From Clostridiales bacterium (GTDB taxonomy: Bacteria > Bacillota > Clostridia > Lachnospirales > WRAX01): a DNA stretch of 64,000 bases. The stretch spans positions 339 through 64,338 of the forward strand of contig JAISCI010000102.1 in the NCBI GenBank assembly GCA_031265685.1, given 5' to 3'. How positions within the stretch are numbered: the stretch's first letter is position 1; every line of letters begins with the position of its first letter. A program made the position numbers and the translations under genes. This document shows positions 24,071 to 59,425 of the stretch, piece after piece. The notes beneath the pieces were generated by a model. The model saw nothing but the letters and a program-made list of their open reading frames with translations. It was not told where the DNA came from and did no database searches.

Positions 24071-26140
24071 CTATAACCGGATCAGCTCCGCTATGCTCAT
24101 AGCAATACTATCCAATATATCATAAAACTTATCATTCAGATCGTAATACTTCCCGTCGGGCTTCGTCAGCGGGTCGTAGGATTCGATCGACTCGCGATCC
24201 TTCCGCGCGACTACGTAGCACGTCACGCCGTTTTCGCGCAACATATCGCGGATATCCTCGACCGAGCGGCCCGAGCGCGTCGGCACGTGCGGCGGCGCGT
24301 CGGTTATCAGTATAAATATCGCGCGTTCGCCCGGGGCGCTCTCCGACGAGCGCAGCAGACCGACCGCCGTCTCCAGCGCATCCAGCGACGATTCGGGGAT
24401 GTCGCCGCCGTATGTGCGCGGGATGTTTTTCACCTGTTTCTGGAACTTTTCCACGTCCGACGTGAAGCTGTATACCGAGGGCTTCTCCTTCTCGTACAAG
24501 TCGCCGAAACCGATCAGCCCCAGACTGGCGCCCGCTCCCTTGCCGCGCACTATCTCCGAGAACTCGATCGCGCGCTCCTTGACGCCGTTAATATATGTGT
24601 CCATGCTGCCCGTCGTGTCGATGACGAACACGATCCTGACGCTGCCGATGCCGGACGGTCGGCGCGGCGGCGCGGACGTCTTCGAGCGGTCAAACATCGC
24701 CCGTTCGCTCCGCCCGGTGGAAAGGTCGCGCACGTATACCTCGAACAGGTTGTCGGCGGAGATGGCGTAGGTTATCTCCAACTGCGTCGTGCCGCGCAGA
24801 CCGCCGAACTCGACGCTGCCGATATACTTGCGCTCGGCCTCGGCGCCCGCCGCCCACTGGTACACGTCCACGCTGACGGTCGTAGCCCCGGACATAGACG
24901 CGAAGTTGGAGTCCGAAAAACTGGACGGGATCTGGCTGCCCATCGGGATGATCGGTATCAGCGACTTCTCGCGCGTTGCGATATTGGTTACGGCCTCGGT
25001 GCCGAATATCTGCCGCGTTATCTGACCGACGGACACCTTGCGCTCGGGCAGGTGGATCAGGTAATTGTATATCGCCGCGCCCATCGCGACGCTCTTCGCC
25101 GGGTCGGTCGCGCGGTAGGGATCCTTCAAAAGCCCGGCCACCATACGTCTCACCATCGGGATGAGCGTCGATCCGCCGACGAGTATAACCTTCGATATAT
25201 CGTCCGCGTCGCGCCCCGAACGCTTAAGCGCTTCCGTGACAATCTCTCGGCTGCGGTCGATATACTTGCGTATCATGGACTCGAATTCCTCGCGGGTTAT
25301 CTCCAGCGAAAGGCTCTTCGGCTCGCCGCCCACGATGACGAGCGGGCTTACGCGCACCACGGCCTTGCTCGTTCCGGAAAGCTTCTTCTTCGTCTCCTCG
25401 GCGACTGCCTTTAGTTTCTGGAGGACGCGCCGCGCGTCGGCTCCGGGCAGATCGCTTAAGTCGATGCCTTCGGATTCCATGAACTTCGTCTTGAAGTGGC
25501 GTATCAGCTCGGAATCGAAATCGTCGCCGCCCAGTTCCATATCTCCGACGTCGGACAGTTCCTGGAAAATTTCCTGTCCGCTTTCGTCCTTCGATACTTT
25601 GAGCACGCACGCGTCGAACGTTCCGCCGCCAAGATCGTAAACGAGTAACGTCTGCGCCAGCCCCTGCCGGTAGCCATACTCGATCGCGGCGGCCAGCGGC
25701 TCGGAAAGCAGGTGGACGGTCGCGAACCCTGCCAGCAGCCCCGCCTGCCGCGTCGCGTATATCTGTCGGTCGTTGAAATACGCCGGGTGCGTTATAACTA
25801 CCTCGCCGAAGGCCTCGCCGGACGCTTCCTCGGCGGCGGCCTTGAGCCGGCGCAGTATGTCCGCGCTAACTTCCTCGGGGGTTTTGCGGACCGCTCCCAG
25901 TTCCAGCGCCTCGCCCGAACCCATCCGCCGCTTGACGGATATGACCGTCGATTCGGGGTAGATGATCGCGCCGGACTTCGCCTCCTCGCCGACGATAACG
26001 GATCCGTCCTCGGCGTAATGGACGACGGACGGAAGTATCTCCGAGCCGTCGATGGGAACGGCGGCGACGCCGTCCGTCCGGTCGCTGTAGATAACGGCGC
26101 ACGAGTTTGTCGTGCCCAGGTCGATGCCCAAGTATCCCAT
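24071..26140 (-). CDS. Hsp70-family ATPase fused to a C-terminal von Willebrand factor A domain
   Basis: I trimmed the track ORF to the ATG at 26140 (AGGAGA RBS), giving 689 aa. Motifs are LGIDLGTTNSCAV, VYDLGGGTFDACVL and ILVGGSTLIPMV. An SBD-beta is present (VSVDVYQW...LEITYAISADNLFEVYVRD) but no helical lid. The vWA domain has a MIDAS motif (VFVIDTTGSM ... ILITDAPPH). Confidence 0.85.
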   Translation of the reverse strand: MGYLGIDLGTTNSCAVIYSDRTDGVAAVPIDGSEILPSVVHYAEDGSVIVGEEAKSGAIIYPESTVISVKRRMGSGEALELGAVRKTPEEVSADILRRLKAAAEEASGEAFGEVVITHPAYFNDRQIYATRQAGLLAGFATVHLLSEPLAAAIEYGYRQGLAQTLLVYDLGGGTFDACVLKVSKDESGQEIFQELSDVGDMELGGDDFDSELIRHFKTKFMESEGIDLSDLPGADARRVLQKLKAVAEETKKKLSGTSKAVVRVSPLVIVGGEPKSLSLEITREEFESMIRKYIDRSREIVTEALKRSGRDADDISKVILVGGSTLIPMVRRMVAGLLKDPYRATDPAKSVAMGAAIYNYLIHLPERKVSVGQITRQIFGTEAVTNIATREKSLIPIIPMGSQIPSSFSDSNFASMSGATTVSVDVYQWAAGAEAERKYIGSVEFGGLRGTTQLEITYAISADNLFEVYVRDLSTGRSERAMFDRSKTSAPPRRPSGIGSVRIVFVIDTTGSMDTYINGVKERAIEFSEIVRGKGAGASLGLIGFGDLYEKEKPSVYSFTSDVEKFQKQVKNIPRTYGGDIPESSLDALETAVGLLRSSESAPGERAIFILITDAPPHVPTRSGRSVEDIRDMLRENGVTCYVVARKDRESIESYDPLTKPDGKYYDLNDKFYDILDSIAMSIAELIRL

Positions 26141-26167
26141 ACCAATTCTCCTGTCTGTTAAAGCTCC

Positions 26168-26338
26168 GCGCCAATCTCCATTTAAGAATATAGAAAAGAT
26201 TTTCAAGTCCGCGCCTGAAGCAGGGTAATTTTCGCGTGATGAATTTTGCGCGGCTTACGCAAAATTCCATCACGCGAAAATGCGATCGAAACTCGTCCAT
26301 ACAAAAATTTACTTCCGCCAATCTAACGGAGATCAGTA
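26168..26338. repeat. family-A-like composite element with a long family-B hairpin (26227..26280)
   Basis: ccaatctccattt / gaaaagattttcaag / ... aattttcgcgtgatgaattttgcg cggctta cgcaaaattccatcacgcgaaaa ... / acggagatcagtat. It fills the whole gap between two Hsp70 genes. Confidence 0.8.
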
Positions 26339-27934
26339 TTACACCCGCGTCTTCTTCCCCCGCTGGGGCGTGAAGTTTCGCTTATAGCCGCCGCCGGCGT
26401 CCTCAACCATGCCGGAGACTACCCCGCCCTCCTCGGCGGCGGACAGCGTGATTCGCAGCCTTGTCCCGCCGCTGGGGCGCGGAGGAAGTCCCGTTACCTC
26501 TATGTCGCCGATCAGCCGGCAGTCCTCCACGGGATCGTCCCGGTTGATCCGCTCCAGAACGCGCAGATCGAAACGCGTCATGTCTTCGGGGCGGCTTCCG
26601 GAGAGCGTGAACACGGCGTCTTTGCGCGCCAGAGCGTAAGGCGTGCCGCGCCGGATCAGCGTATAGAAAACCTTTTTCGCGCCGTTTGTCACCTCCAGCC
26701 CGATGTCGTGCGGAACGCTGCCGGAGAACGCAACGGCGCGGCGCTCGGCGGAGAACTCCCGCCCGGCGAGAAGCCCCATCTTCATCGCCGCGTAGTACGC
26801 CGCGCCGACCGATATGTCCAGCGCGGGGCGCTCGGACTGATATATCTTCGATTCGTCGCCGAACACGCCGTTCAACATATCCCGCACCCAGGGCGCGGCC
26901 GACGATCCGCCCTCCAACAGCACGCGGCTGATGTCCCCGGGAGCCAGAGCGCCCTTGTACGCGCCGCGCAGCGCCTTTTGCGTAAGCTGACGCGTCTTCT
27001 CGATAAACGCCGCCGCCAGTCCCTCATAGCGCTCGCGCGTCAGGTTCTCGATAAACGGCGGTATCATAAACGTGAACGGCACGCGGAACGACTTCGCGCC
27101 CGAGAGCCGTTCCTTCGCCTCGCGCGCGCGGATCTCCACTTCGGCGCGGTTTTCCGGGACGATCGATTCGCGGGTCTGGCCGGTTTTCGCCTCTATCCAG
27201 TCGTAGCACTGTTCGGTAAGAATAGCGTCGAGCGCGTCTCCGCCGTGGGCCGCGTCTCCGCCCTCGGATATGACCGTCAGCCGCGTCAGTCCCGGCGGTT
27301 CCTCCGTCACGCTGAAAACGGTTATATCGAGCGTGCCGCCGCCGAAGTCGAACACCAGCACGCGCTCGCCGTCCTCAAGCTCGCGCTTGAAATTCATAGC
27401 GAGCGCGGCGGCCTTCGGCTCCTCGATCAGGCAGATCAGGCCGCCGCCCAGCCCCGCCAGCTCGCAGGCGCGGATTGTCGCCTTCTTCGCGGCGTCGTCG
27501 AACCCATAAGGCACTGATACGACCAGTCCGGCTATCTCGGCTTTCGGGTTTATCGCTCGCGCGCGCGACGCCAGTTCTTCCAATATCTTCGCGGATATTT
27601 CCTCCGGCGCGTAGTCCTTGCCGCCCAGCCGGAACGTCTTGTCCGTGCCCATATACCGCTTCGCCGAACGCACCGTGGAATCGGGGTACAGCTTTATCGA
27701 GCGGTAGGCCTCCTCGCCGACGACCCACTCGCCGCCGTCGCGCCACTGCACAACGGAAGGCAGCGGTATCTTGCCGAACCCGTCCGAAACGTCGATGGTT
27801 TCGGGCGCGCCGGACGACGGCGAATAATAACTGACGACGGAGTTGGTCGTGCCTAAGTCTATGCCGAGCACGAACCAGTCCTCGGGCAGGGACCCGCGCC
27901 GGTCTATATCTTTTTTGCAATCTTCCCACTTCAT
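26339..27934 (-). CDS. Hsp70-family ATPase, lidless paralogue
   Basis: 531 aa. LGIDLGTTNSVVSYY, VFDFGGGTLDITVF, LLEGGSSAAPWV. It ends just after the beta-sandwich SBD. Confidence 0.85.
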   Translation of the reverse strand: MKWEDCKKDIDRRGSLPEDWFVLGIDLGTTNSVVSYYSPSSGAPETIDVSDGFGKIPLPSVVQWRDGGEWVVGEEAYRSIKLYPDSTVRSAKRYMGTDKTFRLGGKDYAPEEISAKILEELASRARAINPKAEIAGLVVSVPYGFDDAAKKATIRACELAGLGGGLICLIEEPKAAALAMNFKRELEDGERVLVFDFGGGTLDITVFSVTEEPPGLTRLTVISEGGDAAHGGDALDAILTEQCYDWIEAKTGQTRESIVPENRAEVEIRAREAKERLSGAKSFRVPFTFMIPPFIENLTRERYEGLAAAFIEKTRQLTQKALRGAYKGALAPGDISRVLLEGGSSAAPWVRDMLNGVFGDESKIYQSERPALDISVGAAYYAAMKMGLLAGREFSAERRAVAFSGSVPHDIGLEVTNGAKKVFYTLIRRGTPYALARKDAVFTLSGSRPEDMTRFDLRVLERINRDDPVEDCRLIGDIEVTGLPPRPSGGTRLRITLSAAEEGGVVSGMVEDAGGGYKRNFTPQRGKKTRV

Positions 27935-27935
27935 A

Positions 27936-29381
27936 TTATATTGTCTCCAGTTTTACTTTTGTCCGCGCCGACCCGCCGGCGGACGGAAACTGCTCGCCGA
28001 ACCCGACGTCCCGGACGGCGACGTCCAGCGTGTCGGCCGCCGAAAAAGCCAGCGACACGCCAACGACAGTCGTCCCCGCGGGACGTCTCGGAAGGCCGGT
28101 CAGCGTCAGATCAGTCAGTTTCACGCCGTCCCGCCCGCCCGAATAAATCTCGACGACCGGCGGCGCGTCTGTCGGCTCGGTCAGCAGAAATGTTCCTTCC
28201 GGGAATTTATCCCACCAATACGCCCCTTCCGGCGCTATCGGGAAGAACCGCGCCGCGTTCCCCGCGCGCACGCGCACGCCCACTCCGCGAGAAAGGCGGT
28301 TAACGTCTCGCAGTTTCGGAAAGGCGGGCGCCAGACCCAGCCCAGCCGCCGCTATCAGACACGCACCCTCGGCCAGAGCGACGGCGGGAACCTTCGGGCA
28401 GATAAGCTCCGCGCGCGGGAACGCCTTTGCCGCGGCCGCCCTCGCGAACGGGTACTCAAACCCGCCGCCCATAAGACATACCGCCGAGACCGCGGCGCGC
28501 TCCCCCGCCGCCGTGACCGCCGCTCTGATCCCCTCGGCGAAAGGTTTTGTCACGGCACGGATATCGGCGTCGCGGGCGGTCATCGCGAAAGGCGGGTACG
28601 CGAAAGATACGTAGAGTTTCACGTCCTTGGCGGACTGCCTCCCCAGAAGCAGCCGCCGGTGCGAACGGCAGAACCGCTCAAGCTGACGGACGTCCCGCGC
28701 GGAAGGCTCCCCGGCGGACTTCTCGTATAGTCCGGCCACAAAAGAGTCGGCCGCCCTGCCCAGAGCGTCCGCACCCAGATCGGGGTACGACACGCTCGAC
28801 AGGCAATCCACAAACCCGCCGCGCCTCTCGTACAGCCCGACGCGAAACGCCCCGGCTCCGAAGTCCGCGATAATGGTCGGCTGGCCATCACGCCCCGCGA
28901 GCAGCCGGGCGGCTGCGCATTCCCGAGCGTCGCGTATGTCCGCGAGCGCGGAGCCGTATCCGGCGTGGACGAACGCCGCGCGAAGATCCTCGGCGGCGGC
29001 GGCCGGCCAATCGGCGGGGGACGCCGCCACTATCGCCTCGACGCCGGCTTTCGGATCCGCGCCTTTCACGAAAGCGATCATGTCGCGGATATATTCGCCG
29101 GTTATCTCGCGTATCGGCGTAGGGCGGCCCCCGGCGCTTGCGTACTCTCCCTTGCCCAGTCGCTCGGGAAGACGCGTAAAAACCGCGCCGTCTTCTCCGC
29201 CGGAGAGCGCGTATTCCCCGAACACCCATTCGCCGTTCGCGTATTCGACCACCGTCGGAGAGGACGGCACACCGTACCCTCCGGATATGTCCACCGCGGC
29301 GGCCTCGCCGCGGACGGCGTCGTAATACGCCACGGCGGATGAATCCGCTCCGATGTCGATCCCGAGAACGAACCCGCTCAT
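27936..29381 (-). CDS. Hsp70/actin-fold protein with degenerate nucleotide-binding motifs
   Basis: 481 aa and colinear with the neighbouring Hsp70s, but GIDIGADSSAVAYY replaces GTTNS, ADFGAGAFRVGLY replaces DFGGGTFD, and CLMGGGFEYPFA replaces the adenosine motif. Confidence 0.7.
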   Translation of the reverse strand: MSGFVLGIDIGADSSAVAYYDAVRGEAAAVDISGGYGVPSSPTVVEYANGEWVFGEYALSGGEDGAVFTRLPERLGKGEYASAGGRPTPIREITGEYIRDMIAFVKGADPKAGVEAIVAASPADWPAAAAEDLRAAFVHAGYGSALADIRDARECAAARLLAGRDGQPTIIADFGAGAFRVGLYERRGGFVDCLSSVSYPDLGADALGRAADSFVAGLYEKSAGEPSARDVRQLERFCRSHRRLLLGRQSAKDVKLYVSFAYPPFAMTARDADIRAVTKPFAEGIRAAVTAAGERAAVSAVCLMGGGFEYPFARAAAAKAFPRAELICPKVPAVALAEGACLIAAAGLGLAPAFPKLRDVNRLSRGVGVRVRAGNAARFFPIAPEGAYWWDKFPEGTFLLTEPTDAPPVVEIYSGGRDGVKLTDLTLTGLPRRPAGTTVVGVSLAFSAADTLDVAVRDVGFGEQFPSAGGSARTKVKLETI

Positions 29382-30169
29382 CTTGCCGCTATGACGTTCG
29401 CGCGGACCAGCGCCTTATCGCCCTCGCGCCAGCCGCGCCCGCATACCGCGATTATCTCGCCGCGCTTTCGCTCCGGGTGCGGCTCGGCGGCCAGCGCCAC
29501 GTGCCAGCGTCCGGAGAACATCTCTCCCGGCTGCGGCTCGACTGGGAATATACCCGCTTCGGCCAGCAGTCTCTCGATTCCAAGCGACGTGCCCGCGCAA
29601 AGGCCCGCTAGCTTCCGGGCGGCGGGATCGCCGGACTGCGCCAGGCGCGGAACGGAGTAGTACATCATCTCGTCGAAGGTGGACACCTCGAACAGCAGCG
29701 CGTCTTTCAGGAAAGCCGCGCGGGATTTTTCCGCCGCCGCGAGTACGCGCGCTCGCTCGGCAGCGCGTTTCTCACGGATCAGCTTCGCGGAGCGCCCGTC
29801 CGGCGAGGTTATGGGCGAAACGCCTTCCAGCGTCTTTTCGGAAGCTTCGCGCGCACCCTCGGCGGACTGGCGCAGACTGTCCGCCTTGATGGCTATGGCC
29901 TCCGCGACGCCCCGCGCGATTGTTTCGGTCTCGTTGGTGAATTCGGCGGACGACACGAAAGCCGAAACGCCGTCGAGCAGTTCCGCGAAAGCCAGCGCCA
30001 TGTCGGCGGGCTTCGCGAGCAATCGCGCCGCGTCGGCGAGCGTCCGGCGATAGTCCGCGTCCCAGCGGGAGAAGGCGGATTCCCTCGCGCGGAACCTGCG
30101 GGCTTCCTCCGCCGCGCGCCGGTTCTGGTAATGGAGTTTTAAGCGCTCATGTTTTTCTCTGGATGGCAT
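29378..30169 (-). CDS. GrpE-like nucleotide exchange factor
   Basis: I trimmed the track ORF to the ATG at 30169 (GAGGGA RBS), giving 263 aa. A long helical N-terminal part is followed by a C-terminus LLAEAGIFPVEPQPGEMFSGRWHVALAAE...GEIIAVCGRGWREGDKALVRANVIAAR, which follows the GrpE beta-domain pattern (G-x-x-x-I-x-x-x-G-x-x-FDP-x-x-H-x-A...G-Y...R-x-A-x-V). Confidence 0.6.
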   Translation of the reverse strand: MPSREKHERLKLHYQNRRAAEEARRFRARESAFSRWDADYRRTLADAARLLAKPADMALAFAELLDGVSAFVSSAEFTNETETIARGVAEAIAIKADSLRQSAEGAREASEKTLEGVSPITSPDGRSAKLIREKRAAERARVLAAAEKSRAAFLKDALLFEVSTFDEMMYYSVPRLAQSGDPAARKLAGLCAGTSLGIERLLAEAGIFPVEPQPGEMFSGRWHVALAAEPHPERKRGEIIAVCGRGWREGDKALVRANVIAAR

Positions 30170-30177
30170 TTTATCCC

Positions 30178-31860
30178 TCAATACAGATCGTCCACAGTCA
30201 GTTCCGTGACCAGCCCGCCCGCCGACAGCGATTCCGCCATGACGCGCAGCATGTTGTCCTGCCCGACACTGAACACGACGCGCACGCGCTCTTGCCCCTT
30301 CGGTCCCTGCGGTATCCCGCGGAGGCTCGTGCCCGAGAGCCGCTTCATGCCGTCGCGGTAGACGTAATCCGGCGAGCCGTCCGTCGCGGGCGCGGTGTTT
30401 TCGTATACGACTATCGCCATGCTGGACAGGTTGTCGAAACCGGTCGTCAGCGTCTCGGGGCATTCCACCGTGAGGCCCTCGGGCGGGATGTCCATGCCGG
30501 AATCCACTATTTTAAGGAATCGTCGCCCATGAAGCTCCAGCCCCAGCGGGTGAATCGTTCTCTCTTTGACCTTGACGATGGGTTCCGCTATGTCGGGCAT
30601 CATGATCATTTCGCAATAAACGGCCGCCCCGCGCGAGATAGAGAGGGCGGGGCTGACCTTGGACTTATACGGCGCCCTGCCGAACTTCTCCTCGACGCGA
30701 TTGGCCGCGAGCGGTATCGCCGAGCTTCCCCCGACGAGGAACACCTCGTCGATGTCCCCGGCGGAAAGCCCTGCCGCCTCGAGACATTTATCAACGCATG
30801 CCAGCGTGGAATCCACCATGTCCGACAGAGTCTTTCCCTCAAACTTCCCAAACGAAACGTCGTCCTGACCCAGGCGGTTGACGCGCGCGTGCGTCTCGAG
30901 CTGTTCGCGGGTTATTTCCATATTTATGCTGACGACGATTGGTTCCTGCAGGAACGGGCTGAGCGTGACCTTGGCGCTCTTCGCCTGACTGAGCCGTTCC
31001 TTGGCGACGTTCGCGGCCTGGCGCAGACGCGCCTGAGCCGTCTTTTTCTGACGCCTCGACACGCCGTCGTCCACTTGCTCGTCGAAGATGTCTATTTCGC
31101 CGTTTGTAAGGTTCTTGAACTCTTCGTAAATAATATCCATGACCAGCGCGTCCGCGTCGTCGCCGCCCAGCCGGTTGTCGCCGTAGGTGGACGCTACCGA
31201 GATGACCGGCTCGTCGCCGGGTTTCGCGTCTATATCGAGTATGCAGGCGTCGAACGTTCCGCCGCCAAAGTCGTATATGAGGACCTTCTTGGCGGAGGAT
31301 TCGCCGATGGCGTAGCTGATCGCGGCGGCGGCGGGTTCAAGCCGAAGATACACGCTGTCCTCGTCGAATCCGGCGAGCACGGCGGCCTCTTTCGTCACGC
31401 GCTTCTGCTTGTCCGTGGAATTGGCGGGCACGGTTATAACGCAGCCCGAAAACTCGCCCGGTATGCCCAGTTCTTCCCGCGCGTACTCGTCGGCTTTGCG
31501 CTTCAGGCAGCCGAGTATCTCCCCGGCGATCTGCGCCGGCGTGAAGGCGTGTTCCTCGCCGCCCGCCTCGACTACGATTTTTTCGTCCGAACCCAGCAGT
31601 CGCTTCACCGAAAGCACCGTGGACGCCGGGAATATCGCGGCGGCTTCCTTCGCTTCCGCGCCGAACACTCGGGAGAGCTTGCCCGGCTCGTCCGGGTCCG
31701 GCTCGAACTGAACCGCCGTCGGGAAGATATTGGCGCCGTCGATAGGGATAGTCTGCGCCTCCCCATCCTTAAAGTTAAATATGCTGACGACGGAGTTGGT
31801 TGTGCCGAAGTCCACGCCGAGATACAGCCCCCGCGCCGTGTCGAGACCGATTGTTCCCAT
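30178..31860 (-). CDS. Hsp70-family ATPase, lidless paralogue
   Basis: 560 aa. LGVDFGTTNSVVSIF, IYDFGGGTFDACIL, FLVGGSSAIPLA. It ends just after the beta-sandwich SBD. Confidence 0.85.
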   Translation of the reverse strand: MGTIGLDTARGLYLGVDFGTTNSVVSIFNFKDGEAQTIPIDGANIFPTAVQFEPDPDEPGKLSRVFGAEAKEAAAIFPASTVLSVKRLLGSDEKIVVEAGGEEHAFTPAQIAGEILGCLKRKADEYAREELGIPGEFSGCVITVPANSTDKQKRVTKEAAVLAGFDEDSVYLRLEPAAAAISYAIGESSAKKVLIYDFGGGTFDACILDIDAKPGDEPVISVASTYGDNRLGGDDADALVMDIIYEEFKNLTNGEIDIFDEQVDDGVSRRQKKTAQARLRQAANVAKERLSQAKSAKVTLSPFLQEPIVVSINMEITREQLETHARVNRLGQDDVSFGKFEGKTLSDMVDSTLACVDKCLEAAGLSAGDIDEVFLVGGSSAIPLAANRVEEKFGRAPYKSKVSPALSISRGAAVYCEMIMMPDIAEPIVKVKERTIHPLGLELHGRRFLKIVDSGMDIPPEGLTVECPETLTTGFDNLSSMAIVVYENTAPATDGSPDYVYRDGMKRLSGTSLRGIPQGPKGQERVRVVFSVGQDNMLRVMAESLSAGGLVTELTVDDLY

Positions 31861-31872
31861 AATTTATCCTCC

Positions 31873-34800
31873 TTAGAGTAGTATCGCCCTGGCCCGCGGG
31901 ACAGGCGAGAGAGCCTTTTCGGCGGAGCGTTCGGCAAGCTCCTCCCGCCCGCGCGCGAGATGAACCGCGGCGTCGTTGACGGCCTGCCAGCCGCCCTCGC
32001 CAAGCCCAAGCTCCGCCTTCGCGACGGCAAGCGTCCGGCTGGCGGTCTCGGTTTCCCCGCCCGCACCGCGCTCGACGAACCGATACCTGATCCTGTCGCC
32101 GTGGAACGCGCGGATATTCGCGGCATACACGCCGAAGCGGACGTATTTCGCCGGGACGCCGCGTTCGGGGCCGCCCGCCGAATACACCAGGGAGACGTTC
32201 CTCCCGCGCCGCCCTCTGTGCTCAAGCGGCTGGTTTTCCTCTATATACGGCGTCCGCGCGGATTTGTCTTTGATCGTTTCCAGTGCCGGCGGGATAACGC
32301 CCAGTTTTTCGGCAGTGGCCGCCGCGCGCGCGACGACCTCGCCGGACGGCTTGACACCTCTGGCGTATACCGCGCAGAGAGCGAAAACGGTCGTATCTTC
32401 CGGATCCGCCCCGGACAGGCAAAGGCCCTCCAGCGCCGCTACCGCTTCCAGCGCGGGTTCCAGACCGTCAAGCTCAATCCCCCTGCACAGCGCCGCCGCG
32501 TATGCCCGGACATGAGCCGATTTCGCCGCCCGCGGCGCTTCCCGCGCGAACGCCGCCTGAGCCGCCCCGGACATATCACGCGTCAGCGCCGCCGAATCCA
32601 GTATCTCCCTGTCGAGCGCGGCGGAGCCGCCGCCAGCGCGGATCGCGGCCTCGGCCAGCCGAGCCATGTCCGCGACACTGCCCGCGCTGCCGGCGGCGGC
32701 TTTCGCCACGCCCGCGTCATACCATCCGCCCAGCGTCAGCTCGCGGCAGACCGGCCCTATCACGGCGCGATCCGCCGCCGACCCCGACCCGGCGACAGCT
32801 CTCGCCGCCGCGAACTTCGTCTCGTCGTCAATCGCCGGAGATTTGGACGCGAGCAGCTTCGCGAGGCGCTCCATGTCGCCCGCCGCCGCCAGCGCCGCGG
32901 CTATAGGCGCCGCGAACACCGCCGGAACGCTTCTCGCGTCCGTCCCGGCGTATCTCTCCGCCGCTTCCGCCGTCAGTCCCGTTTTGGCGAGCAAGCCCGC
33001 CGCCGCCGCCGAAACCGCCCGCAACAGTTCGGGCGAGAGCGAGGGTTCTCGCAGAGCTTTCGTCAGCATCGACAGTTTATTGGCGGCCGATATGCCGCGC
33101 GTCCGGGGATCGTCGTCTATGATCCCCTTGGAGAGCGCCGCGAGCAGTCTCGGCGACGGGTTGCCGTCCAGAAAAAACCGCGTGTACAGACGTATCCCAG
33201 CGTTCTCGATCATGCGGACAGCCGTGAATCCGCCGCCGGCGGCCGCGCCCGCGCCGTCCAGAAACGCCGCCGAAAACCCGTGCCCCGCGGCTTCCGCGAC
33301 ACATGACGTGCCCGAGAAGGAGTAGTTTTCGGGAGCCGCCATCAGCGGGTCAAATACGCGAACCTGCCGAGCGGACTGATCCGCCGGCGACAGGCGGAAG
33401 CGGAACAGGTTGTCGCGCACAAGCCGTTCGGCCTTCTTATACAGCGGCGACGACCTGTCCGCGACGTCGAGGTAGAACGCGTACGCGCTCAGGAAGTATC
33501 GTCCCGTTTCGCCCGCCGTCAGCGACCGCTCGGCGAATTCCGCGATCCGGCGCGTCAGCGGGCCGACCGCCTGCTGGTTCTCGGGGCGGGTCAGCATCAG
33601 ATGGAACACGAAAGCGTCGTCCGCTCCCTCGGCGTACTCGCGCAGGGCGGCTGGCGGTACGTCCGGAACGGCCCGCCGCCGCGCCGACGTTATGACGGCG
33701 GCCGAAAGACCGGGTATGCTCAGGCCGGCGTTCAGCGCCGTGACATAATACCGGTAGGCCCGCTCGGAATAATCCGCCCGCGTGAGCGCCGACGAGCACA
33801 GCGCCGCCAGCAGCGACCGCTCCGGATACCGCCGGTAGACGCTGTCGGCGGCGGCCGGAGTCATGCGCGCCGCTATCGCCGCGCCATACATTCGGACGGC
33901 CCTCGAAATGTCCCGCCCCTTGGCCGCGCCCCACGCGACGGCTCCGAGAAAGAGCGAACGTCCCGGCGCGCCCGATATGTCCGTGTCCGGATCGGCGGCG
34001 CAAAGACAGTCGCACGCGCAATCAAGGAGCCGCCTCGAACGCTCCCCCAGCGCGAACGCTTCCGCGAGCGCCGCGAAGCCGCGAGCCGCGCCAAACGCCG
34101 TGAACGCCGCCATTCCCGCGTATGACGATTCGGACGAGCGAGCGAGCCGCCCCGCCTCGCGCCGCGCGGTGAACATCGAACCGCCGTCGGCCGCCGCGCG
34201 GCACCGCAGATATACGTACCGCGCCCATTCCTCCGGCGCCGTCTTTCTAAGCCGCCGGTCGCGCTTCGCGGCGGATTTGAGCTGCAGCCGGGCGCTCTCA
34301 AGTAGCCCGGCGGATATGTCGCGTTCTATCGTGTCGAGCGTGTCGGGCGGGATCGGGCTTTTGAGCTTAATCGACACGGCGACGCGCGTTACCCCAGCCG
34401 GGGTGATCAGATCGACGGCAGCTTCGGCCTCGGTCGTCTTACGCCCAAGTTCCGGCGCGACGGTGAACGGTATGCCCGCCTTGTCCGCGATGAGGTATCG
34501 CCGCGCCGAGAACCTCGTGAGCCGGTCCCTCGGCGCCGCCTCGACGAGCATGTCGCGGCGCGTCGAGTTGACGACGATTATCGAGCCGGATTCGCCGGGC
34601 GCGTATGTCTCGCGGTCCGTCCGCGCGGAGAGCGACCGGCGCCGCGCCGCCATGATCGTAACGCCCGAGCCGTCCGACAGATTGACGCGGGCGGCGGCGA
34701 AGCGCGATTTAAGCAGCCCGGGATATATGATGAAGCGTTTTTCGGCAAAGCCGTCTTTCGAGAAATCCGACGGCGAGACGACCGGTTCCAGCAACTTGAG

Positions 34801-35412
34801 CCACGGCGCGTCCGCGGTCAGCTTATCCGACGCGACGCCCCAGCCATTGAGACGCAACGGAATAACCCCAGTCGCCGAATCGGTCTCACCGGGATTGAAC
34901 TCGAAACGCAGCAGCCGTTCCGTGGGCGCGACGGCGGCGCGTTCCTTAAACCCCGACGTCACAAGGAAGCTGTCCAGTCCCTCGGCGCCGCCCCGCCGGA
35001 ACCGCTCGTACAGATCCATATGCCTGAAACCAATCTTTTGCAGCCACTCGCGGAACGTTTCCGCGCCGAACACCCTGGCAGCCCCGGCAAAGTCCGACCG
35101 GGCGTAATCGGCGAACTCGCCGACGGAACGGCAGCGCGTACCAGTCAAGACCGCGGAAGGGTCCCCCAAGACGCGCACGCGGCCCTCGCCGCCGCTCGTG
35201 ATCAGCGACACCGAAGCGGTCTCCGCCCCGGAACCGCCCCGATACGTCACGGCGACGCGGCAGTCTCCGTCGAACTCCGCCGGGGAGACGGTTATCCCGG
35301 GCGAATCGGCGGCGATCCCGCCAAACAACCGCCCTGTTCCGGCGTTTGTGATAGAAAAGAAGGCGGTGTCGCCCGCCCCTGACAGCCTGACTTCGCGGAG
35401 AGACAGCCGCAA
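31873..35412 (-). CDS. 1179-aa protein of unrecognised family (three N-terminal beta-rich modules plus ~800 aa Ala-rich helical region)
   Basis: Continuous ORF with coding-like composition. The track start is TTG at 35412. The frame stays open 19 more codons upstream (TTEAEYERVIDVLEDGKPE) with no canonical start codon. No HPD/J-domain, Walker or other motif is recognisable. Confidence 0.7.
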   Translation of the reverse strand: MRLSLREVRLSGAGDTAFFSITNAGTGRLFGGIAADSPGITVSPAEFDGDCRVAVTYRGGSGAETASVSLITSGGEGRVRVLGDPSAVLTGTRCRSVGEFADYARSDFAGAARVFGAETFREWLQKIGFRHMDLYERFRRGGAEGLDSFLVTSGFKERAAVAPTERLLRFEFNPGETDSATGVIPLRLNGWGVASDKLTADAPWLKLLEPVVSPSDFSKDGFAEKRFIIYPGLLKSRFAAARVNLSDGSGVTIMAARRRSLSARTDRETYAPGESGSIIVVNSTRRDMLVEAAPRDRLTRFSARRYLIADKAGIPFTVAPELGRKTTEAEAAVDLITPAGVTRVAVSIKLKSPIPPDTLDTIERDISAGLLESARLQLKSAAKRDRRLRKTAPEEWARYVYLRCRAAADGGSMFTARREAGRLARSSESSYAGMAAFTAFGAARGFAALAEAFALGERSRRLLDCACDCLCAADPDTDISGAPGRSLFLGAVAWGAAKGRDISRAVRMYGAAIAARMTPAAADSVYRRYPERSLLAALCSSALTRADYSERAYRYYVTALNAGLSIPGLSAAVITSARRRAVPDVPPAALREYAEGADDAFVFHLMLTRPENQQAVGPLTRRIAEFAERSLTAGETGRYFLSAYAFYLDVADRSSPLYKKAERLVRDNLFRFRLSPADQSARQVRVFDPLMAAPENYSFSGTSCVAEAAGHGFSAAFLDGAGAAAGGGFTAVRMIENAGIRLYTRFFLDGNPSPRLLAALSKGIIDDDPRTRGISAANKLSMLTKALREPSLSPELLRAVSAAAAGLLAKTGLTAEAAERYAGTDARSVPAVFAAPIAAALAAAGDMERLAKLLASKSPAIDDETKFAAARAVAGSGSAADRAVIGPVCRELTLGGWYDAGVAKAAAGSAGSVADMARLAEAAIRAGGGSAALDREILDSAALTRDMSGAAQAAFAREAPRAAKSAHVRAYAAALCRGIELDGLEPALEAVAALEGLCLSGADPEDTTVFALCAVYARGVKPSGEVVARAAATAEKLGVIPPALETIKDKSARTPYIEENQPLEHRGRRGRNVSLVYSAGGPERGVPAKYVRFGVYAANIRAFHGDRIRYRFVERGAGGETETASRTLAVAKAELGLGEGGWQAVNDAAVHLARGREELAERSAEKALSPVPRARAILL

Positions 35413-38004: not shown

Positions 38005-38496
38005 TTATTGGATACTATTCTCTATTCTTAAAATATTATATATTTTCTTGCCTTCAATAACCCGCGCCGCCGCCGTTACGATTCGGCCGTTCACCGCCGC
38101 CCATTCCGCCACTCTATCCCAGTCGCGGTGCGGCACGAGCACGATCCCACTGAACGCCCGCGCAGTCTCGGGAGCGGCTTCCAGAATTTCAATAATATTC
38201 AGTCCGCCCATTCCCGCGATTACACATTCCTCGAACTCTCCCGGAGCCACGGCGCGAAGCCCGTTGCCCAAGCGCGTCTCCACGACGCCGCCAAGGCTCC
38301 ACGCGTCAATCTTGCGCCGCGCCGCGGCGAGCGGCCCGGGGGCTATGTCGCAGGCCGCCGCGCGGTCGATCCGCCCTGTCGCGGCCAACCATACCGGCAG
38401 CATAGCGTGATCGCAGCCGACGTCGCACATCGACCGCGCACGCAGCATGTCCGCGACCGCGCGCAGCCGCGGCGCCAGCGCGAAGAGCCGCTTCAT
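38005..38496 (-). CDS. trmK: tRNA (adenine(22)-N1)-methyltransferase, short form
   Basis: I trimmed the track ORF to the ATG at 38496, giving 163 aa. DVGCDHAMLPVWL...AAACDIAPGPL...IAGMGG. Only the methyltransferase domain is present. The start codon directly abuts a repeat terminus (ggagattagtATG). Confidence 0.75.
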   Translation of the reverse strand: MKRLFALAPRLRAVADMLRARSMCDVGCDHAMLPVWLAATGRIDRAAACDIAPGPLAAARRKIDAWSLGGVVETRLGNGLRAVAPGEFEECVIAGMGGLNIIEILEAAPETARAFSGIVLVPHRDWDRVAEWAAVNGRIVTAAARVIEGKKIYNILRIENSIQ

Positions 38497-38636
38497 ACTA
38501 ATCTCCACACCAAAGGATACCGAATATTTTTTCGATCCGCGACTGATAAGTTTGCGTGGTTCATGCAAACTTCAGAAGCCGCGCGGATGCGCAAGCTCGA
38601 AAAAATATTCGGCACAAATCTAAGTGGAATTAGTAT
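38495..38636. repeat. family-A palindromic element with an internal AAGTTTGC-N9-GCAAACTT hairpin (38548..38572)
   Basis: atactaatctccac / ccgaatattttttcga / core / tcgaaaaaatattcgg / aagtggaattagtat. It fits exactly between the stop of 38639..40885 and the trmK ATG. Confidence 0.85.
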
Positions 38637-38638
38637 CA

Positions 38639-40885
38639 TCAGAACATATCCCTTTCCATCAGACCTACGGCCATCTCGGCGTTGCGCCGCGCGGCCACCC
38701 GCGACCGCTCGGCGTAGCTCATCAGAGCCGACGAGATCGCCGCGCGGTTGAAGATAATGTAATCGGCGCAGGCGCGCAGCTTCTCGCCGTCGATCGCGCG
38801 CGCGTCCACGCAATAGGGCTGATTCGCGCCCTCCATCACCGCGCGGACTTTCGGGTCGTAAACCACGCCGATTGGCGGCGTACCGACGCTGATAGCGTAG
38901 ATAACGGAGTGCAGCCGCATCCCGACCACGAACGCCGCGCCGCGGATCAACTCGAGCGTCTCCCCGACGGATCGCGCGCCAAGGTACGCCCCGCCGCCCC
39001 GGACTCTCGCCGCCACGCGCCGTGAGACGGTCTCGTCGTTCTCAGGCTGCATCGGGATAAATAACGGAGCGAGGCCGTGCTTGAGTTTGCAATATTCGCA
39101 GAATTCCGATATCTCACGCTCGAAAGTTTCCGCTTCGACGCCTTTCAGGTATTTCCATGAACGGATCGAGACGAGGAAGTATCCGCCGGGTTTCAGTCCC
39201 AGTTCGGTCAGCTTCGCCGCCGCGGCGTCCGCGTCGCCGTCACGGGGCAGTATACCGAACGCCGCATCCGCCGTCACGGCCGATTCCGGGACGGTCACGC
39301 CGAGCGCTTCAGCTTCGCGCGCCGAATCCGCGTCGCGCAGCGTAATGAGATCGACGGCGTTCAGCGTCCGGCCCGCGCGCCTGCGGTTCTTCTCTCTCCG
39401 AACGGGTCCTATGCCGTTCGCGTACATCATAACCGCCGCCCCGCGCCGCTTCGCGAGACGGATTACGTACAGATAATACAACAGCGACTGCGTACTGGTT
39501 ATATCCTGAATCAGACTGCCGCCGCCGGATACAAGCACGTTGGTTTCCGCCATCAGCCTGGACAGCTTGAACACGTTGAACCGGAACACCGTGCTGACGC
39601 CGTATTCCCGCGCCGTTACGCCCGGCCTCCTGGAGAGCACCACGGCGTTCAGATCGGGCTTAAGAGCGCGAAGGTCGTCCAGAAGCGCTTTCAGCACCGC
39701 GTCGTCGCCGTTGTTGTTGAAGCCGTAGTATCCGGAGACGACCGCGTCCACGGGGCGCGACGATTTGAGCACGCGTTCGTACAGCGCCAGAGCGTCGTCC
39801 GCCATGCGCGACGAATCGTACAGCTTCCTTACAATGTCGCGGCCGTACCGCGATAACCGGTCCGCCTCTCCAGTCGGCATACGCAGCAGCGTCAGTATGT
39901 CCGTGCGCAGGCTCTTCTGGTCAAACGGAGCGCAATCTCGGCACGTGAAGTTCGTCGCTATAGCGCTCGGCAATTTATCCTCGCCGAATATGCCGAGCGA
40001 CCCAAAGTTTCCGGCAAGGATCACGCGTTTCCCGGATGACATGGCCTCGAGCGCCGCCCGGCTGATCGCGACGGCTATCTCCGCGTTCGCGACGATACGG
40101 TTCACGTCCACGCGCGGCCCCGTCATAATAATGGCTTTCGTCTCGAGACGGGCGTTTATATTCTGCGCCGCCTTACGCAGGCTCTCGGCTTCCGTTCCGC
40201 CGCCGACGACGACCAGCTCGATCTTCGGCACGAGCTGATGAAGCTCCTCCACGCATTGGAGCAGCGCGTACGCCACCGAACAATTCCCCTTGTCCAGACG
40301 GCTGACGTACACAATGCGGCGTTTATCCTTAGCCAAGCCAAACTCCAGCGCCACCCGCGACCCGTCCGTGCCGGGAGAGAATTTCTCCGTGTCGATGCCG
40401 TTTATCGTTATGTCTATGCCGTCTTCCGGCACGCCGTAATTGCTGGCGAGATAAGTTTTCAGATCCTCGCTCACGGCGAGCTGTTTTTCGCCCCAGTTTG
40501 ACAGCAGTTTCAGCAATGGGCTGATGTAAAACTCGCAGTGGCACGTGGTGACGAAACGGAAGTGCAGGCGCTTTTGGAGCATTCCGCACAAAAAAGCCGG
40601 AATCCGCGCGTGGGCGTGGACAAGTTTGATGCCGTTCTCCCGGATGATCCGCTCCAGCGCGAAATAGCTCGCTATCATGCTGCGCGGTCCGCGGCTGTTG
40701 AGCGGAACGGTGAAATGCCTGATCCCCGCCGCCTCCAGTTCGGGGACGTACGCGCCGCCTTTGGACGCGACGTAAACGTCCGCGCCGCGCGACTTCAGGC
40801 TTTTCGACAATTCCAGAACGTGGGTCTCCGCGCCGCCGATCTCCATGCCTTGAAGCGCCATCAGCACCTTGAAATCCGTTTTCAT
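38639..40885 (-). CDS. fusion of GT4-type glycosyltransferase and CsaB-type polysaccharide pyruvyl transferase
   Basis: 748 aa. The N-terminal half is GT-B/GT4-like (MEIGGAETHVLELSK...). The C-terminal half reads VVSGYYGFNNNGDDAVLKALLDDL, the CsaB pyruvyl-transferase signature. Confidence 0.75.
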   Translation of the reverse strand: MKTDFKVLMALQGMEIGGAETHVLELSKSLKSRGADVYVASKGGAYVPELEAAGIRHFTVPLNSRGPRSMIASYFALERIIRENGIKLVHAHARIPAFLCGMLQKRLHFRFVTTCHCEFYISPLLKLLSNWGEKQLAVSEDLKTYLASNYGVPEDGIDITINGIDTEKFSPGTDGSRVALEFGLAKDKRRIVYVSRLDKGNCSVAYALLQCVEELHQLVPKIELVVVGGGTEAESLRKAAQNINARLETKAIIMTGPRVDVNRIVANAEIAVAISRAALEAMSSGKRVILAGNFGSLGIFGEDKLPSAIATNFTCRDCAPFDQKSLRTDILTLLRMPTGEADRLSRYGRDIVRKLYDSSRMADDALALYERVLKSSRPVDAVVSGYYGFNNNGDDAVLKALLDDLRALKPDLNAVVLSRRPGVTAREYGVSTVFRFNVFKLSRLMAETNVLVSGGGSLIQDITSTQSLLYYLYVIRLAKRRGAAVMMYANGIGPVRREKNRRRAGRTLNAVDLITLRDADSAREAEALGVTVPESAVTADAAFGILPRDGDADAAAAKLTELGLKPGGYFLVSIRSWKYLKGVEAETFEREISEFCEYCKLKHGLAPLFIPMQPENDETVSRRVAARVRGGGAYLGARSVGETLELIRGAAFVVGMRLHSVIYAISVGTPPIGVVYDPKVRAVMEGANQPYCVDARAIDGEKLRACADYIIFNRAAISSALMSYAERSRVAARRNAEMAVGLMERDMF

Positions 40886-45593: not shown

Positions 45594-46472
45594 CTAGATG
45601 GATGCGCCGCCAAAATCAATGGTACCCTGGAGCGAACAGACGCCCATGAAGCGCATACCGTTCATCGGCATCCCCACCAGGTCGTGCGCGTTGACAAGGG
45701 CGCTCAGAGGAACGCCCGTAACGTTCAGCTTGAGTGAGTATACATATTCCCGCGTTATGCGGTTCCGCTTCTTCTCGAAGGAAATAATGTCGCCCAGCGC
45801 CGCGAACGCGCTGTCCTTGTCGCCGAACGGCAGCAGGTACCCCTCGAGCACGGACAGTATGTCTTCGTCGCGGAAACGCTCGCGGACGGCTTCGGCCATG
45901 GCCTCGGCGCGGGCGTACAGCTCGCGTTCGGCGTCCTCATCGCCTTCGCGCGCGCGGCGGATCAGATCTCGTTTGATCTCGGCTTCGGATTCGCGCTCCC
46001 TCTCGGCGTCCTCGTCGCGAAGCACCGGGAAGAGCACGCTGCCGACCTCGCACAGCCCGGCGACGTTCGCGCGGCAGGAGGCTAGTTCGCGGCGGCCGGT
46101 GCCGCGGATAAAGGCGTTGTACTCGGTTACGTTATTCAGTCGGAACTCGAACTCCTGACCGGAATCGGAGTGCTCGCAATAGGCGAATACGTCGCCGTTC
46201 GGGAAGCGCTCAAAATCGACCCGCTCGATGGAGATGGCCTCGTCGCTGCGCGCGAAAGCGTTCCAGCGGCGCACCTTTACGGTATCGTTCTCCTGCCGCG
46301 TGCCGTAGACGATCAGTCCGAAGTCGTCGCCGGCGTAGCCGTACTGCTCGACCAGGTTCTTATGGCAGAAGAAACTGTCCGGCAGCATGGTTATGCGACG
46401 CAGAATCTCGCTGATGTCCTTGCGGCGCTTCTCAATGGATTTGAAGCCGACGGCGCTCAAGTTTCTGGTCAA
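45594..46472 (-). CDS. hypothetical protein with a central acidic coiled-coil
   Basis: 292 aa with coding-like composition. I do not recognise a motif with confidence. Confidence 0.6.
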   Translation of the reverse strand: MTRNLSAVGFKSIEKRRKDISEILRRITMLPDSFFCHKNLVEQYGYAGDDFGLIVYGTRQENDTVKVRRWNAFARSDEAISIERVDFERFPNGDVFAYCEHSDSGQEFEFRLNNVTEYNAFIRGTGRRELASCRANVAGLCEVGSVLFPVLRDEDAERERESEAEIKRDLIRRAREGDEDAERELYARAEAMAEAVRERFRDEDILSVLEGYLLPFGDKDSAFAALGDIISFEKKRNRITREYVYSLKLNVTGVPLSALVNAHDLVGMPMNGMRFMGVCSLQGTIDFGGASI

Positions 46473-46483
46473 TGGAATCAGTC

Positions 46484-47752
46484 CTAACGGATTTCGTCAA
46501 TGCCCATATAGGGTATCAGCGCGTCCGGCACGCGTATCGAGCCGTCCTCGCGCTGGAAATTCTCGATTATCGCAGCCGTCGTCCGCCCCGCCGCCAGCCC
46601 CGAGCCGTTGAGCGTGTGGACGAGCGCCGTCCTGCCGCCCGCGTCCCGGTACCTTATCTGGGCACGCCGCGCCTGGAACGACTCGAAGTTGGAGCAGCTC
46701 GAAATCTCGACATAGCGGTTGTAGCTTGGCATCCATACCTCGATGTCATACGTCTTGGCGGACGAGAAACCCAGATCGCCGCCGCACAGGCAAACCACGC
46801 GGTACGGCAGGCCGAGCAGCCGCAGTATATCCTCGGCGTCGCCGGTCAGGCTCTCCAGCTCGGCGTAGGAATCCTCCGGCCGCGCGAACTTGACCAGCTC
46901 GACCTTGTTGAACTGGTGCTGACGGATCAGGCCGCGCGTGTCGCGCCCGGCGGAACCGGCCTCCGCGCGGAAACACGCCGAATACGCGCAGTATTTAATG
47001 GGAAGCCTCGCCCCGTCCAGTATCTCCTCGCGGTGCATATTGGTGACGGGCACCTCCGCCGTCGGGATGAGGAAGTAGTCCGTCCCGGCCACCTTGAACG
47101 CGTCCTCCTCGAACTTCGGAAGCTGACCGGTGCCCTGCATCGAGCGCCGGTGCGCCATATACGGCGGGAACACCTCGGTGTAGCCGTGCTTCCGCGAGTG
47201 CGTGTCCAGCATGAAGTTGACGATGGAACGCTCGAGACGCGCGCCCAGCCCTTTGTAGAACGTGAACCGCGCGCCGGTGACTTTTGCGGCGGCTTCGGCG
47301 TCGATTATGCCCAGTTCCCTGCCGAGATCCCAATGCGGCTTCGGCTCAAAGGCGAACGCGGCCGGATCGCCGACCCTGCGCAGCTCGGTGTTGTCCGCGT
47401 CCGAAGCCCCGGCGGGAACAGACGCGTGCGGCGCGTTGGGGACGTTCAGCAGAAAGTCCTCGGCGGCGGCCTCGACTTCGCGCAGCCGGACTCCGAGCAT
47501 CGCGGCTTCGTCCGAGATCACCTTCATCTCGGCCAGCAGTTCCGAAACGTCCTCCCCGTCTTTGCGCATCCGCGGTATCCGCTTGCTGGCCTGATTCTGC
47601 CGCGCCTTAAGCGCGTCGGCCCGGACAATAATCTCCCGTCGCTCCCGCTCAATGTCCAGGAACGCCTCCAGCCCATAATCCTTGCCGCGCTTATCAAGCG
47701 CCGCTTTGACGCCGTTGAAATTGCTCCGTAATTCTTTTATATCAATCAAATT
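46484..47752 (-). CDS. serS: serine--tRNA ligase
   Basis: I trimmed the track ORF to the TTG at 47752 (GGGAGG-N7-TTG), giving (M)IDIKELRSN..., the normal SerS N-terminus. Class II motifs include [25 protein letters not shown] and ENFQRE. Confidence 0.9.
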
Positions 47753-47777
47753 ATATGCCTCCCGATTGTTTATTGGC

Positions 47778-47806
47778 ATTATAGCATTCAATTAGGAAAG
47801 ACGCAA
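47778..47806 (-). promoter_or_regulatory. sigma-70-type promoter of serS
   Basis: On the minus strand: TTGCGT, 17 nt spacer, TATAAT (with TGC immediately upstream), about 25 nt upstream of the TTG start. Confidence 0.5.
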
Positions 47807-50792: not shown

Positions 50793-51368
50793 CTACGCCT
50801 CATCACCCAGTATAAACCTGTAAATCTCCAAATTAAACCGCACGCGCCGCAAATAATTCTCTGTCTCGCGGAAGGGCGCGGACGTCAGCCGAACGCCGTC
50901 GGCGGAATACGCCGGATTTTTCAGCCATTTCGACACGTTGCCGCTCCCGGCGTTGTACGCGGCCAGCGCCGTGTCCGTGTCCCCGAACTGCGCCGTCAGC
51001 CGCGCCAGCAGCCAGCAGCCGATCCGTATATTGATCTCCGGCTCGCGGACGCGCGAGTAGTCGTAGCCCGGGATACCGATCTCTGCCGCCGCCCAGTCCG
51101 CCGAACCGCGCACGATCTGCATAAGCCCGCTGGCGCCCTTCCGTGACAGCGCGGCTTCGTCAAATTTCGACTCGGCGTGGATGACGGCGCACACGAGCGA
51201 CGGAGCCAGCCCGTATTCGGCGGCGTACTTCCGTATAATCCCGATGTGTTTCAGCGGGTAGTACCACGAAAACGCCCAGCACGCCAAAAGCAGCAGCGCG
51301 GCTATGACGGCGGCCGCGGCGGCGGGCTTCCGAAGCCTCCGCAGATCTATGACTTTAGACATTCTCAT
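50793..51368 (-). CDS. lytic transglycosylase (SLT-domain) protein
   Basis: 191 aa. N-terminal TM helix, catalytic AVIHAESKF, GLMQI, AYNAGSGNV. The start codon abuts a repeat terminus (ggaattagtATG). Confidence 0.85.
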   Translation of the reverse strand: MRMSKVIDLRRLRKPAAAAAVIAALLLLACWAFSWYYPLKHIGIIRKYAAEYGLAPSLVCAVIHAESKFDEAALSRKGASGLMQIVRGSADWAAAEIGIPGYDYSRVREPEINIRIGCWLLARLTAQFGDTDTALAAYNAGSGNVSKWLKNPAYSADGVRLTSAPFRETENYLRRVRFNLEIYRFILGDEA

Positions 51369-59407: not shown

Positions 59408-59425
59408 TTTTGGTTTTGCGGTTTT

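Follow-up and report, generated by a model that had tools for sequence, protein, structure and literature searches.

Fold-back repeats at gene junctions of an uncultured Clostridiales bacterium are probably mobile elements that duplicate a TNA target

A fold-back repeat family with the features of MITEs

We analyzed a 64-kb stretch of DNA (the window, about 62% GC) on contig JAISCI010000102.1 from the metagenome-assembled genome of an uncultured Clostridiales bacterium (NCBI MDR1210084.1 and neighbours), in which inverted-repeat elements end directly at ATG codons, including the start of the gene trmK. These repeats are very probably non-autonomous fold-back transposable elements, that is, MITEs (for miniature inverted-repeat transposable elements), that insert at a TNA target (N, any base) and duplicate it. 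The abutting ATG would then be mostly a by-product of insertion, and the family an ordinary mobile one, not a dedicated translation switch.

A first-pass annotation made from the sequence alone had reported three repeat termini abutting ATG codons at 38496 (trmK), 51368 (a gene with an SLT domain) and 23745 (a small open reading frame, ORF), and reading the minus strand bore this out. The trmK junction reads ...GGAGATTAGT-ATG, with the terminal string GTGGAGATTAGT-ATG and, over a longer span, ...GGTGTGGAGATTAGT-ATGAAG. The SLT and small-ORF junctions both read ...GGAATTAGT-ATG (terminal string ATGGAATTAGT-ATG), extending to ...AGAATGGAATTAGT-ATGAGAATG at the former and ...CTAATGGAATTAGT-ATGACT at the latter. 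The gene names given were also right according to Pfam (TrmK/Methyltransf_18, SLT and CoaE), which identifies the gene ahead of trmK as a GT4 + pyruvyl-transferase fusion. At each of the three junctions an inverted-repeat element comes to its 3' end; the partner arm, TACTAATTCC..., is found 108-140 nt farther upstream, and the core motif GGARWTTAGTA has three matches versus 0.02 expected.

A terminus search in which each copy was read individually revealed a family of fold-backs delimited by TAC...GTA and 47-171 nt long, with eight copies in the window (A to H; Table 1). Their termini are TACTAATTCCAYTTAGA...TCTAAATGGAATTAGTA; terminal inverted repeats of 13-17 nt (TACTAATTCCAYT.../...AATGGAATTAGTA) are conserved among copies, and the fold-back runs along the whole element. 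Element G resembles the 108-nt element D, but its loop additionally holds a palindrome of 27 nt that belongs to a second repeat family. Scans of genome and metagenome collections with TACTAATTCCAYTTAGA returned 55 and 95 stretches, respectively, nearly all of them single chance matches in unrelated low-GC genomes. The only real copies were three on unrelated contigs from other metagenomes (L084, L085 and L123). They keep the family termini, whereas the interiors of their hairpins diverge at many sites, both among themselves and from the window copies, and yet remain perfectly complementary. These contigs are of lower GC (40-47%). A viral scan for the terminus gave 10 matches, all attributable to chance; no Rfam family matched any element, three tRNAs being the only Rfam matches in the window; and a literature search for the terminus string retrieved unrelated papers only. 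The source species is evidently absent from the scanned genome and metagenome collections, and the repeat family, together with the nested 27-nt palindromes, appears to be a set of mobile elements not described before, from a Clostridiales lineage that is uncultured and has been poorly sampled.

Perfect 3-nt direct repeats flank TAC...GTA in six of ten copies (permutation P = 0.005): TGA/TGA in G, D, C and L084, TAA/TAA in L085 and TTA/TTA in A. TNA triplets occupy 16 of 20 flanks versus 3.7% of the trinucleotides in the window. A filled and an empty site could be compared at L084, where the element splits the ORF of an IS4-family transposase whose intact homologue P0018, 93% identical, reads AFVRLFKLTADAM. 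To obtain VRLF|KLTVDAM from L084, 104 nt have to be deleted, namely the element of 101 nt together with a single TCA copy, which is TGA on the opposite strand; with the element alone deleted, one codon too many remains. The difference from the intact homologue (P0018/L154) is thus the element plus 3 nt. This comparison and the flanks together point to MITEs whose insertion at TNA duplicates 3 bp. The transposase gene interrupted in L084 is also frameshifted further upstream.

In every feature open to testing, the elements are those of a bacterial MITE: they are short (under about 500 bp), multi-copy and devoid of coding capacity, carry terminal inverted repeats, show target duplication and offer a filled/empty site pair. 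The suggestion in the first-pass annotation that insertion targets gene starts came closest to this evidence, although the real target is any TNA triplet, which is duplicated. Same-strand junctions without an element in the window have spacings of -26 to about 46 nt. Where genes abut or overlap in this way, with spacers between them of only -4 to about 40 nt, harmless TNA sites would mostly be TGA/TAA stops and TGATG-type stop/start overlaps; the copies probably lie at gene boundaries because spacers are short and the stops TGA and TAA are themselves TNA. Consistent with this distribution, the left duplicate is the upstream stop codon in C (TGA at 20554-20556, of an FtsX-type permease gene) and in F (TAA, of an Hsp70-like gene), B holds a stop within its terminus and the target of G is the second TGA of TGATGA. 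Promoter and terminator scans around G, H and D/E gave nothing that exceeded shuffled sequences; on this evidence, none of the elements is an obvious terminator or promoter.

Origin of the abutting ATG

The terminal ...GTA followed by a duplicated TGA gives the right junction GTA|TGA, which reads ATG and then A. The element-abutting start codon is a mechanical by-product of insertion chemistry because it consists of the last base of the element, A, and the TG of the duplicated TGA. GTA|TG is present in every one of the five copies that have TGA on the right, including C, which has no gene behind it, and L084, which lies inside the transposase gene; in E, B, L085 and L123, which have TAA or TTC there instead, the junction reads ATA or ATT. 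The ending GGAATTAGT-ATG recurs in a fourth copy, C. We considered the ATG of C as a gene start and rejected it: the ORF behind it has no Pfam match, no annotation and no coding signal in its third-codon-position GC content (0.59, versus 0.73-0.80 in real genes). Furthermore, the internal orientation of D is opposite to that of G and H, so either element end can face a downstream gene. D abuts its ATG by the opposite end from G and H; no particular end is specialised.

In practice, an element that ends in A and duplicates TNA gives rise to spurious in-frame ATGs and pulls automated start calls into the repeat. Pipelines disagree on where trmK, the SLT gene and the small ORF each begin.

Probable insertion of element G into a stop/start overlap ahead of trmK

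Removing G and one TGA copy reconstructs an empty trmK site, gtctgatggaaagggatatgttctgATGAAG (in longer form ...ggaaagggatatgttcTGATGaagcgg), with a one-base stop/start overlap. The csaB-trmK junction expected without the element is ...TTCTGATGAAGCGG, or ...GATATGTTCTGATGAAGCGGCTC... over a longer span. Within ...TTC-TGA-TGA-AGC, in which one A belonged to both the upstream stop and the trmK ATG, the element would have inserted at the second TGA; of the two resulting TGA copies, the left would keep the stops, while the right would rebuild the trmK ATG together with the terminal A. In this reconstruction, the TrmK N-terminus, MKRLFALAPRLRAV, is identical before and after insertion, and it aligns with the starts of homologues. 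The ATG had been described as the only plausible trmK start. An in-frame GTG at 38508 is nevertheless used by one gene caller (167 aa), whereas the homologue alignment favours the ATG. In L001, a Logan SRR14710922 contig that was assembled independently from the same strain, the sequence breaks off 19 nt inside G and trmK is called from the in-element GTG, an example of the trouble that these repeats cause for assembly and for calling start codons. At 163 aa, TrmK is without the C-terminal ~60-90 residues found in its nearest homologues (217-258 aa).

The searched collections contained no close relative without G, and contigs with identical proteins belonged to the same strain only. As no natural empty site was obtained for G, H or D in these collections, the comparison of orthologous junctions that had been proposed was made with distant orthologues. 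Among these element-free trmK orthologues, one (L165) follows sigA with a stop/start spacer of 1 nt and has only weak Shine-Dalgarno (SD)-like sequence, and another (L167) has a weak SD. trmK appears to be habitually weakly initiated or coupled.

In the reconstruction without the element, the candidate native SD, AAAGGGA, precedes the ATG by 9 nt. Insertion would have moved this weak signal away from the trmK ATG, from which it now lies 143 nt. The right terminus of G has one base more than the usual GGAA form, which gives GGAG; in the predicted fold-back, GGAG pairs with TTCC at 38626-38629 and the one-base difference from GGAA forms an unpaired bulge. Of the earlier proposal that GGAG/GGAA serves as the SD, the part concerning trmK is plausible, given the predicted pairing of GGAG (-6.4 kcal/mol, 6-nt spacing), a value that is equalled by about 9% of random positions. 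The GGAA form, by contrast, is at background level.

Translation of trmK could now proceed by one or more of three routes. Ribosomes might initiate from the GGAG of the variant terminus. Alternatively, ribosomes ending at the upstream stop might melt the AT-rich outer stem and so expose the SD and AUG. Lastly, a 48-codon open frame, present in no annotation, leads from the left ATG through G; it is a possible translational relay, in which ribosomes would stop at the UGA overlapping the trmK AUG and reinitiate.

On a more speculative note, and with little confidence, the MITE family might be 'operon-compatible', presenting stops in two frames on its inbound side, a terminal A plus GGA(G) on its outbound side and a fold-back that rejoins the upstream stop and downstream start. 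Insertion into the TGATGA overlap would then keep coupling by stem melting or by a relay ORF ending in AUGA, with the trmK terminus improved in place from GGAA to GGAG. If so, the design of this transposon would let it settle in the narrowest junctions between genes in a compact genome. The trmK junction is in any event a clean natural case of a transposon inside a stop/start overlap with both genes formally intact, and it offers a good test case for translational coupling surviving a 140-nt hairpin.

Small-ORF and SLT junctions

Both NCBI and JGI annotate the small-ORF product (96 aa) from ATG 23727, and the 102-aa form that would begin at the repeat occurs in no source. Reconstruction of the site before insertion gives ...cttttTGActgggagcgcggctATG, in which the ATG of 23745 is missing; the expected sequence without the element is ...TCTTTTGACTGGGAGCGCGG.... 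ATG 23745 is therefore best read as a new in-frame ATG, six codons upstream of the putative original start and preceded only by GGAA.

For the SLT gene, NCBI takes 51368 as the start, while the gene call on a Logan contig takes 51362. Judged from sequence, the repeat-abutting ATG would be an in-frame extra, two codons upstream of the original start, and the insertion history of H is ambiguous. The coaE frame enters the 5' arm of H and ends within it at a TAG stop (51460-51462). At neither the SLT gene nor the small ORF did the SD role that had been assigned to the termini survive: anti-SD affinity is at background level in both, and a better or equal start lies just downstream.

Alternative roles for the fold-backs

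Among the explanations that differ from a MITE family with an incidental ATG, the one that fares best, though we regard it as unlikely, is that the transcribed fold-backs are mainly RNA-processing or stability elements, RNase III substrates that separate mRNA fates, with any SD effect secondary. Long stems, almost perfectly paired over 40-60 bp (-45 to -73 kcal/mol), do lie in same-strand gene runs, free of terminator- or promoter-like signals, and Correia elements, which are bound and cleaved or protected by RNase III, provide a precedent (PMC2649163). The present repeats nevertheless have no sequence relation to Correia elements and differ from them in target duplication, and the complementarity of their arms is equally expected of a DNA transposon with long inverted repeats.

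We consider it improbable that the termini have been selected as SD donors, with the fold-back masking the SD and AUG to uncouple or tune distal operon genes. The first-pass annotation had placed an SD-like sequence inside the outer inverted repeat, paired in the fold-back, and folding agrees: at all three sites, the fold-back is both the minimum-free-energy and the centroid structure, in which GGA(G/A) and the UA before UG, and hence the A of AUG, are paired. Opening the ribosome-binding site (RBS) region from -15 to +12 costs 13-16.6 kcal/mol with the element; for trmK, the cost rises from 7.9 kcal/mol in the empty site to 14.0 with G. The one-base variant of the trmK terminus (GGAA to GGAG) also fits such selection.

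Against it stand the affinities of the usual terminus. GGAA binds the anti-SD with -3.3 kcal/mol, which is matched by 35% of random positions, whereas clear genes here reach -8 to -12 kcal/mol; by these predicted energies, GGAA is not a functional SD. Fold energies are -72.9 kcal/mol for G (z = -4.0) and -52.6 for D (z = -3.9), but H (-45.5 kcal/mol, z = -1.3) folds no better than its shuffles. The masking effect would be moderate because the window is GC-rich and opening the RBS of nine ordinary genes in it already costs 7.3-13.8 kcal/mol, a range that the opening energies with the element overlap. The base pairs in question are those of the transposon's own terminal repeat. A modelled ribosome on the upstream stop lowers the opening cost to 10.7 kcal/mol (G) and 6.9 kcal/mol (H), making unmasking by termination plausible. 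The distribution of copies also speaks against selected SD donors: the identical junction occurs in C without a gene and in L084 within a transposase ORF, either element end may abut an ATG, and five of the eight window copies abut no start at all. Moreover, the genes after B (ATG 7042; SD GGGGGA) and F (start 26140) retain strong SDs of their own outside the element. On modelled energetics, a role of the fold-back as a translation regulator is not compelling.

Finally, IS630/mariner-type or Correia-like MITEs duplicating TA at an ATAT-like target, with the ATG stemming from a TATG target, are highly improbable: nearly all copies begin and end with TA, the base just outside tends to be A at the left end and T at the right end, and a first tblastn alignment was slightly longer under this model (160 versus 153 bits), but that advantage came from the unrelated upstream frameshift in L084, the flanks outside TAC...GTA are 3-nt direct repeats in six of ten copies, and comparison with the 93%-identical intact transposase rejects the model, as it is out of frame at the L084 junction and only removal of TAC...GTA plus 3 nt gives the correct frame and residue count.

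Comparison with known systems

The IS1031 group of the IS5 family of insertion sequences (ISs) prefers TNA targets and generates exclusively 3-bp direct repeats (PMC12016507). MITEs derived from this group share with our elements their short, non-coding, multi-copy nature, terminal inverted repeats and 3-nt TNA duplication. They differ in that the elements here are long fold-backs with nested palindromes, for which no cognate transposase or full-length IS was found in the loci examined; the only IS in the window (59811-61599) has different termini. The duplication signature points to an IS1031-like transposase as a candidate source.

Correia elements duplicate TA and carry Neisseria-type 26-bp termini as well as promoter and IHF sites. 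Like these Correia/NEMIS elements of Neisseria, which are co-transcribed with adjoining genes and can alter the expression of neighbours (PMC2649163), the elements described here are hairpin-forming MITEs. They are not Correia elements, as they duplicate 3 nt at TNA, have unrelated termini and no promoter-like signal and belong to another phylum.

In Neisseria REP2 and Borrelia IR-A/IR-B, a promoter, RBS and ATG reside in a repeat that has no terminal inverted repeats (PMC3184786). The resemblance lies in repeats directly upstream of ORFs that add translation-initiation signals. Here, however, the ATG is split between the A of the element and the TG of the target, no promoter is present and one copy only has a credible SD; the elements are not REP2-type repeats.

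Hairpin-mediated translational coupling is exemplified by the MS2 coat-replicase pair and by termination-reinitiation at ATGA/TGATG overlaps. The routes suggested for trmK are similar, with an upstream ribosome that opens a masking stem or stops at a UGA overlapping the AUG. In contrast to MS2, coupling here is deduced, and the structure was made by transposon insertion instead of evolving in place.

Several points weigh against the MITE interpretation. The sample is small, at 11 copies, and H and E have a left flank of CGG, which is not TNA and implies an insertion history other than simple duplication. The SLT empty site is not confidently reconstructable because this flank leaves H with no intact duplication. 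The loci examined were searched for an autonomous partner, but they contain no two termini at a distance of 0.3-4 kb that make a convincing pair, and in the one IS1031-group member compared, ISLrh, the terminus GAACCTGTCTAGTATCT is unlike TACTAATTCCATTTAGA here. The trmK empty site is reconstructed, not observed, with the nearest TrmK in the searched collections 45% identical. The open frame through G could have arisen by chance, with an estimated prior of roughly 5-10% for 46 AT-rich codons. All statements on translation rest on thermodynamic models.

Table 1 Coordinates of repeat copies and junction features
Feature	Position	Strand	Description
Element A	5329-5375	-	47-48 nt minimal form; flanks TTA/TTA; followed by solo terminus at 5316-5325
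Element B	7057-7104	-	48 nt; stop TAA of upstream gene inside terminus
Element C	20557-20727	+	171 nt; flanks TGA/TGA; right junction GTATG
Element D	23745-23852	-	108 nt; flanks TGA/TGA (23853-23855, 23742-23744)
Element E	23968-24059	-	92 nt; both termini of CTCC/GGAG type; ends GTA-TAA, no ATG formed
Element F	26170-26338	-	about 169 nt; right terminus decayed
Element G	38496-38635	-	140-nt fold-back between csaB-like gene and trmK
Element H	51368-51475	-	108 nt, between coaE and SLT gene; right flank TGA, left flank CGG
L084 (Ga0123353_10848346)	1055-1155		101-nt copy in IS4-family transposase gene
L085	184-284		copy; flanks TAA/TAA
L123	958-1115		copy with family termini
trmK	38005-38496	-	163 aa; ATG 38496 fits homologue N-termini and NCBI annotation
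GT4/pyruvyl-transferase (CsaB-like) gene	38639-40885	-	upstream of trmK; stop TGA 38639-38641
Left target duplicate TGA of G	38636-38638	-	with A38639 keeps the pre-insertion ATG (reconstructed)
Right target duplicate TGA of G	38493-38495	-	TG and terminal A (38496) form the trmK start, ATG 38496-38494
GGAG in right terminus of G	38503-38506	-	6 nt ahead of trmK ATG; predicted anti-SD pairing -6.4 kcal/mol
AAAGGGA, candidate native SD	38649-38655	-	3' end of csaB-like gene; -5.3 kcal/mol
48-codon open frame	38493-38639	-	left ATG through whole of G to TGA overlapping trmK ATG (ATGA)
27-nt palindrome GAAKTTTGC...GCAAAMTTC	38547-38573	.	second repeat family, nested in loop of G
GGGAG (23735-23739) and ATG 23727	23725-23739	-	annotated start of 96-aa hypothetical protein, outside element
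ATGAGAATG, two in-frame SLT start candidates	51360-51368	-	ATG 51368 = element A + TG; ATG 51362 wholly flanking DNA

Solo termini, nested palindromes and neighbouring loci

Two terminus-like sequences occur outside the eight copies. One, TACTAATCCC..., lies directly after element A and ahead of a pepF-like gene (5316-5325); the other, GACTGATTCCATTGACC at 46473-46483, coincides with the stop/start junction of the genes at 46484-47791 and 45594-46472. Both may be relics of further insertions.

The second repeat family, the 27-nt palindrome, recurs at 10168-10225, 11216-11305, 20799-20886, 20620-20679 (in C), 26241-26267 (in F) and 38547-38573 (in G). Copies are solo, compound or nested in MITE loops, and the one in C is split by a further palindrome, giving 'Russian-doll' hairpins. 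Four more (GAATTTTGCKTG...CAMGCAAAATTC) lie at 60281-60307, 60487-60513, 60669-60695 and 60818-60844, within the transposase frame of the IS1182/IS5-like IS at 59811-61599. This IS has the termini CAGACCGCGCAAAAA/TTTTTGCGCGGTCTG and a transposase with DUF772 and DDE_Tnp_1_6 domains. At 27 nt, the palindrome equals nine codons, and the copies that were translated have no stop in three frames. Those in the IS are read through in frame, for example as ...SNDAY[EFCVNQAKF]LTEAG..., reminiscent of the Rickettsia palindromic elements. Three tandem tRNA genes (59334-59585) lie just upstream of the IS.

A run of minus-strand ORFs (24071-35412), with elements D, E and F located at its 3' end or shortly beyond, encodes two Hsp70-like proteins and a 1179-aa DUF5717 protein. 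One of the Hsp70-like pair is fused to a VWA domain, and the other has a weak, below-threshold match to DUF5716_C. At the right end of the window, where GC is low (about 47-55%), an ORF at 62122-62820 has a weak, below-threshold match to BclA_C.

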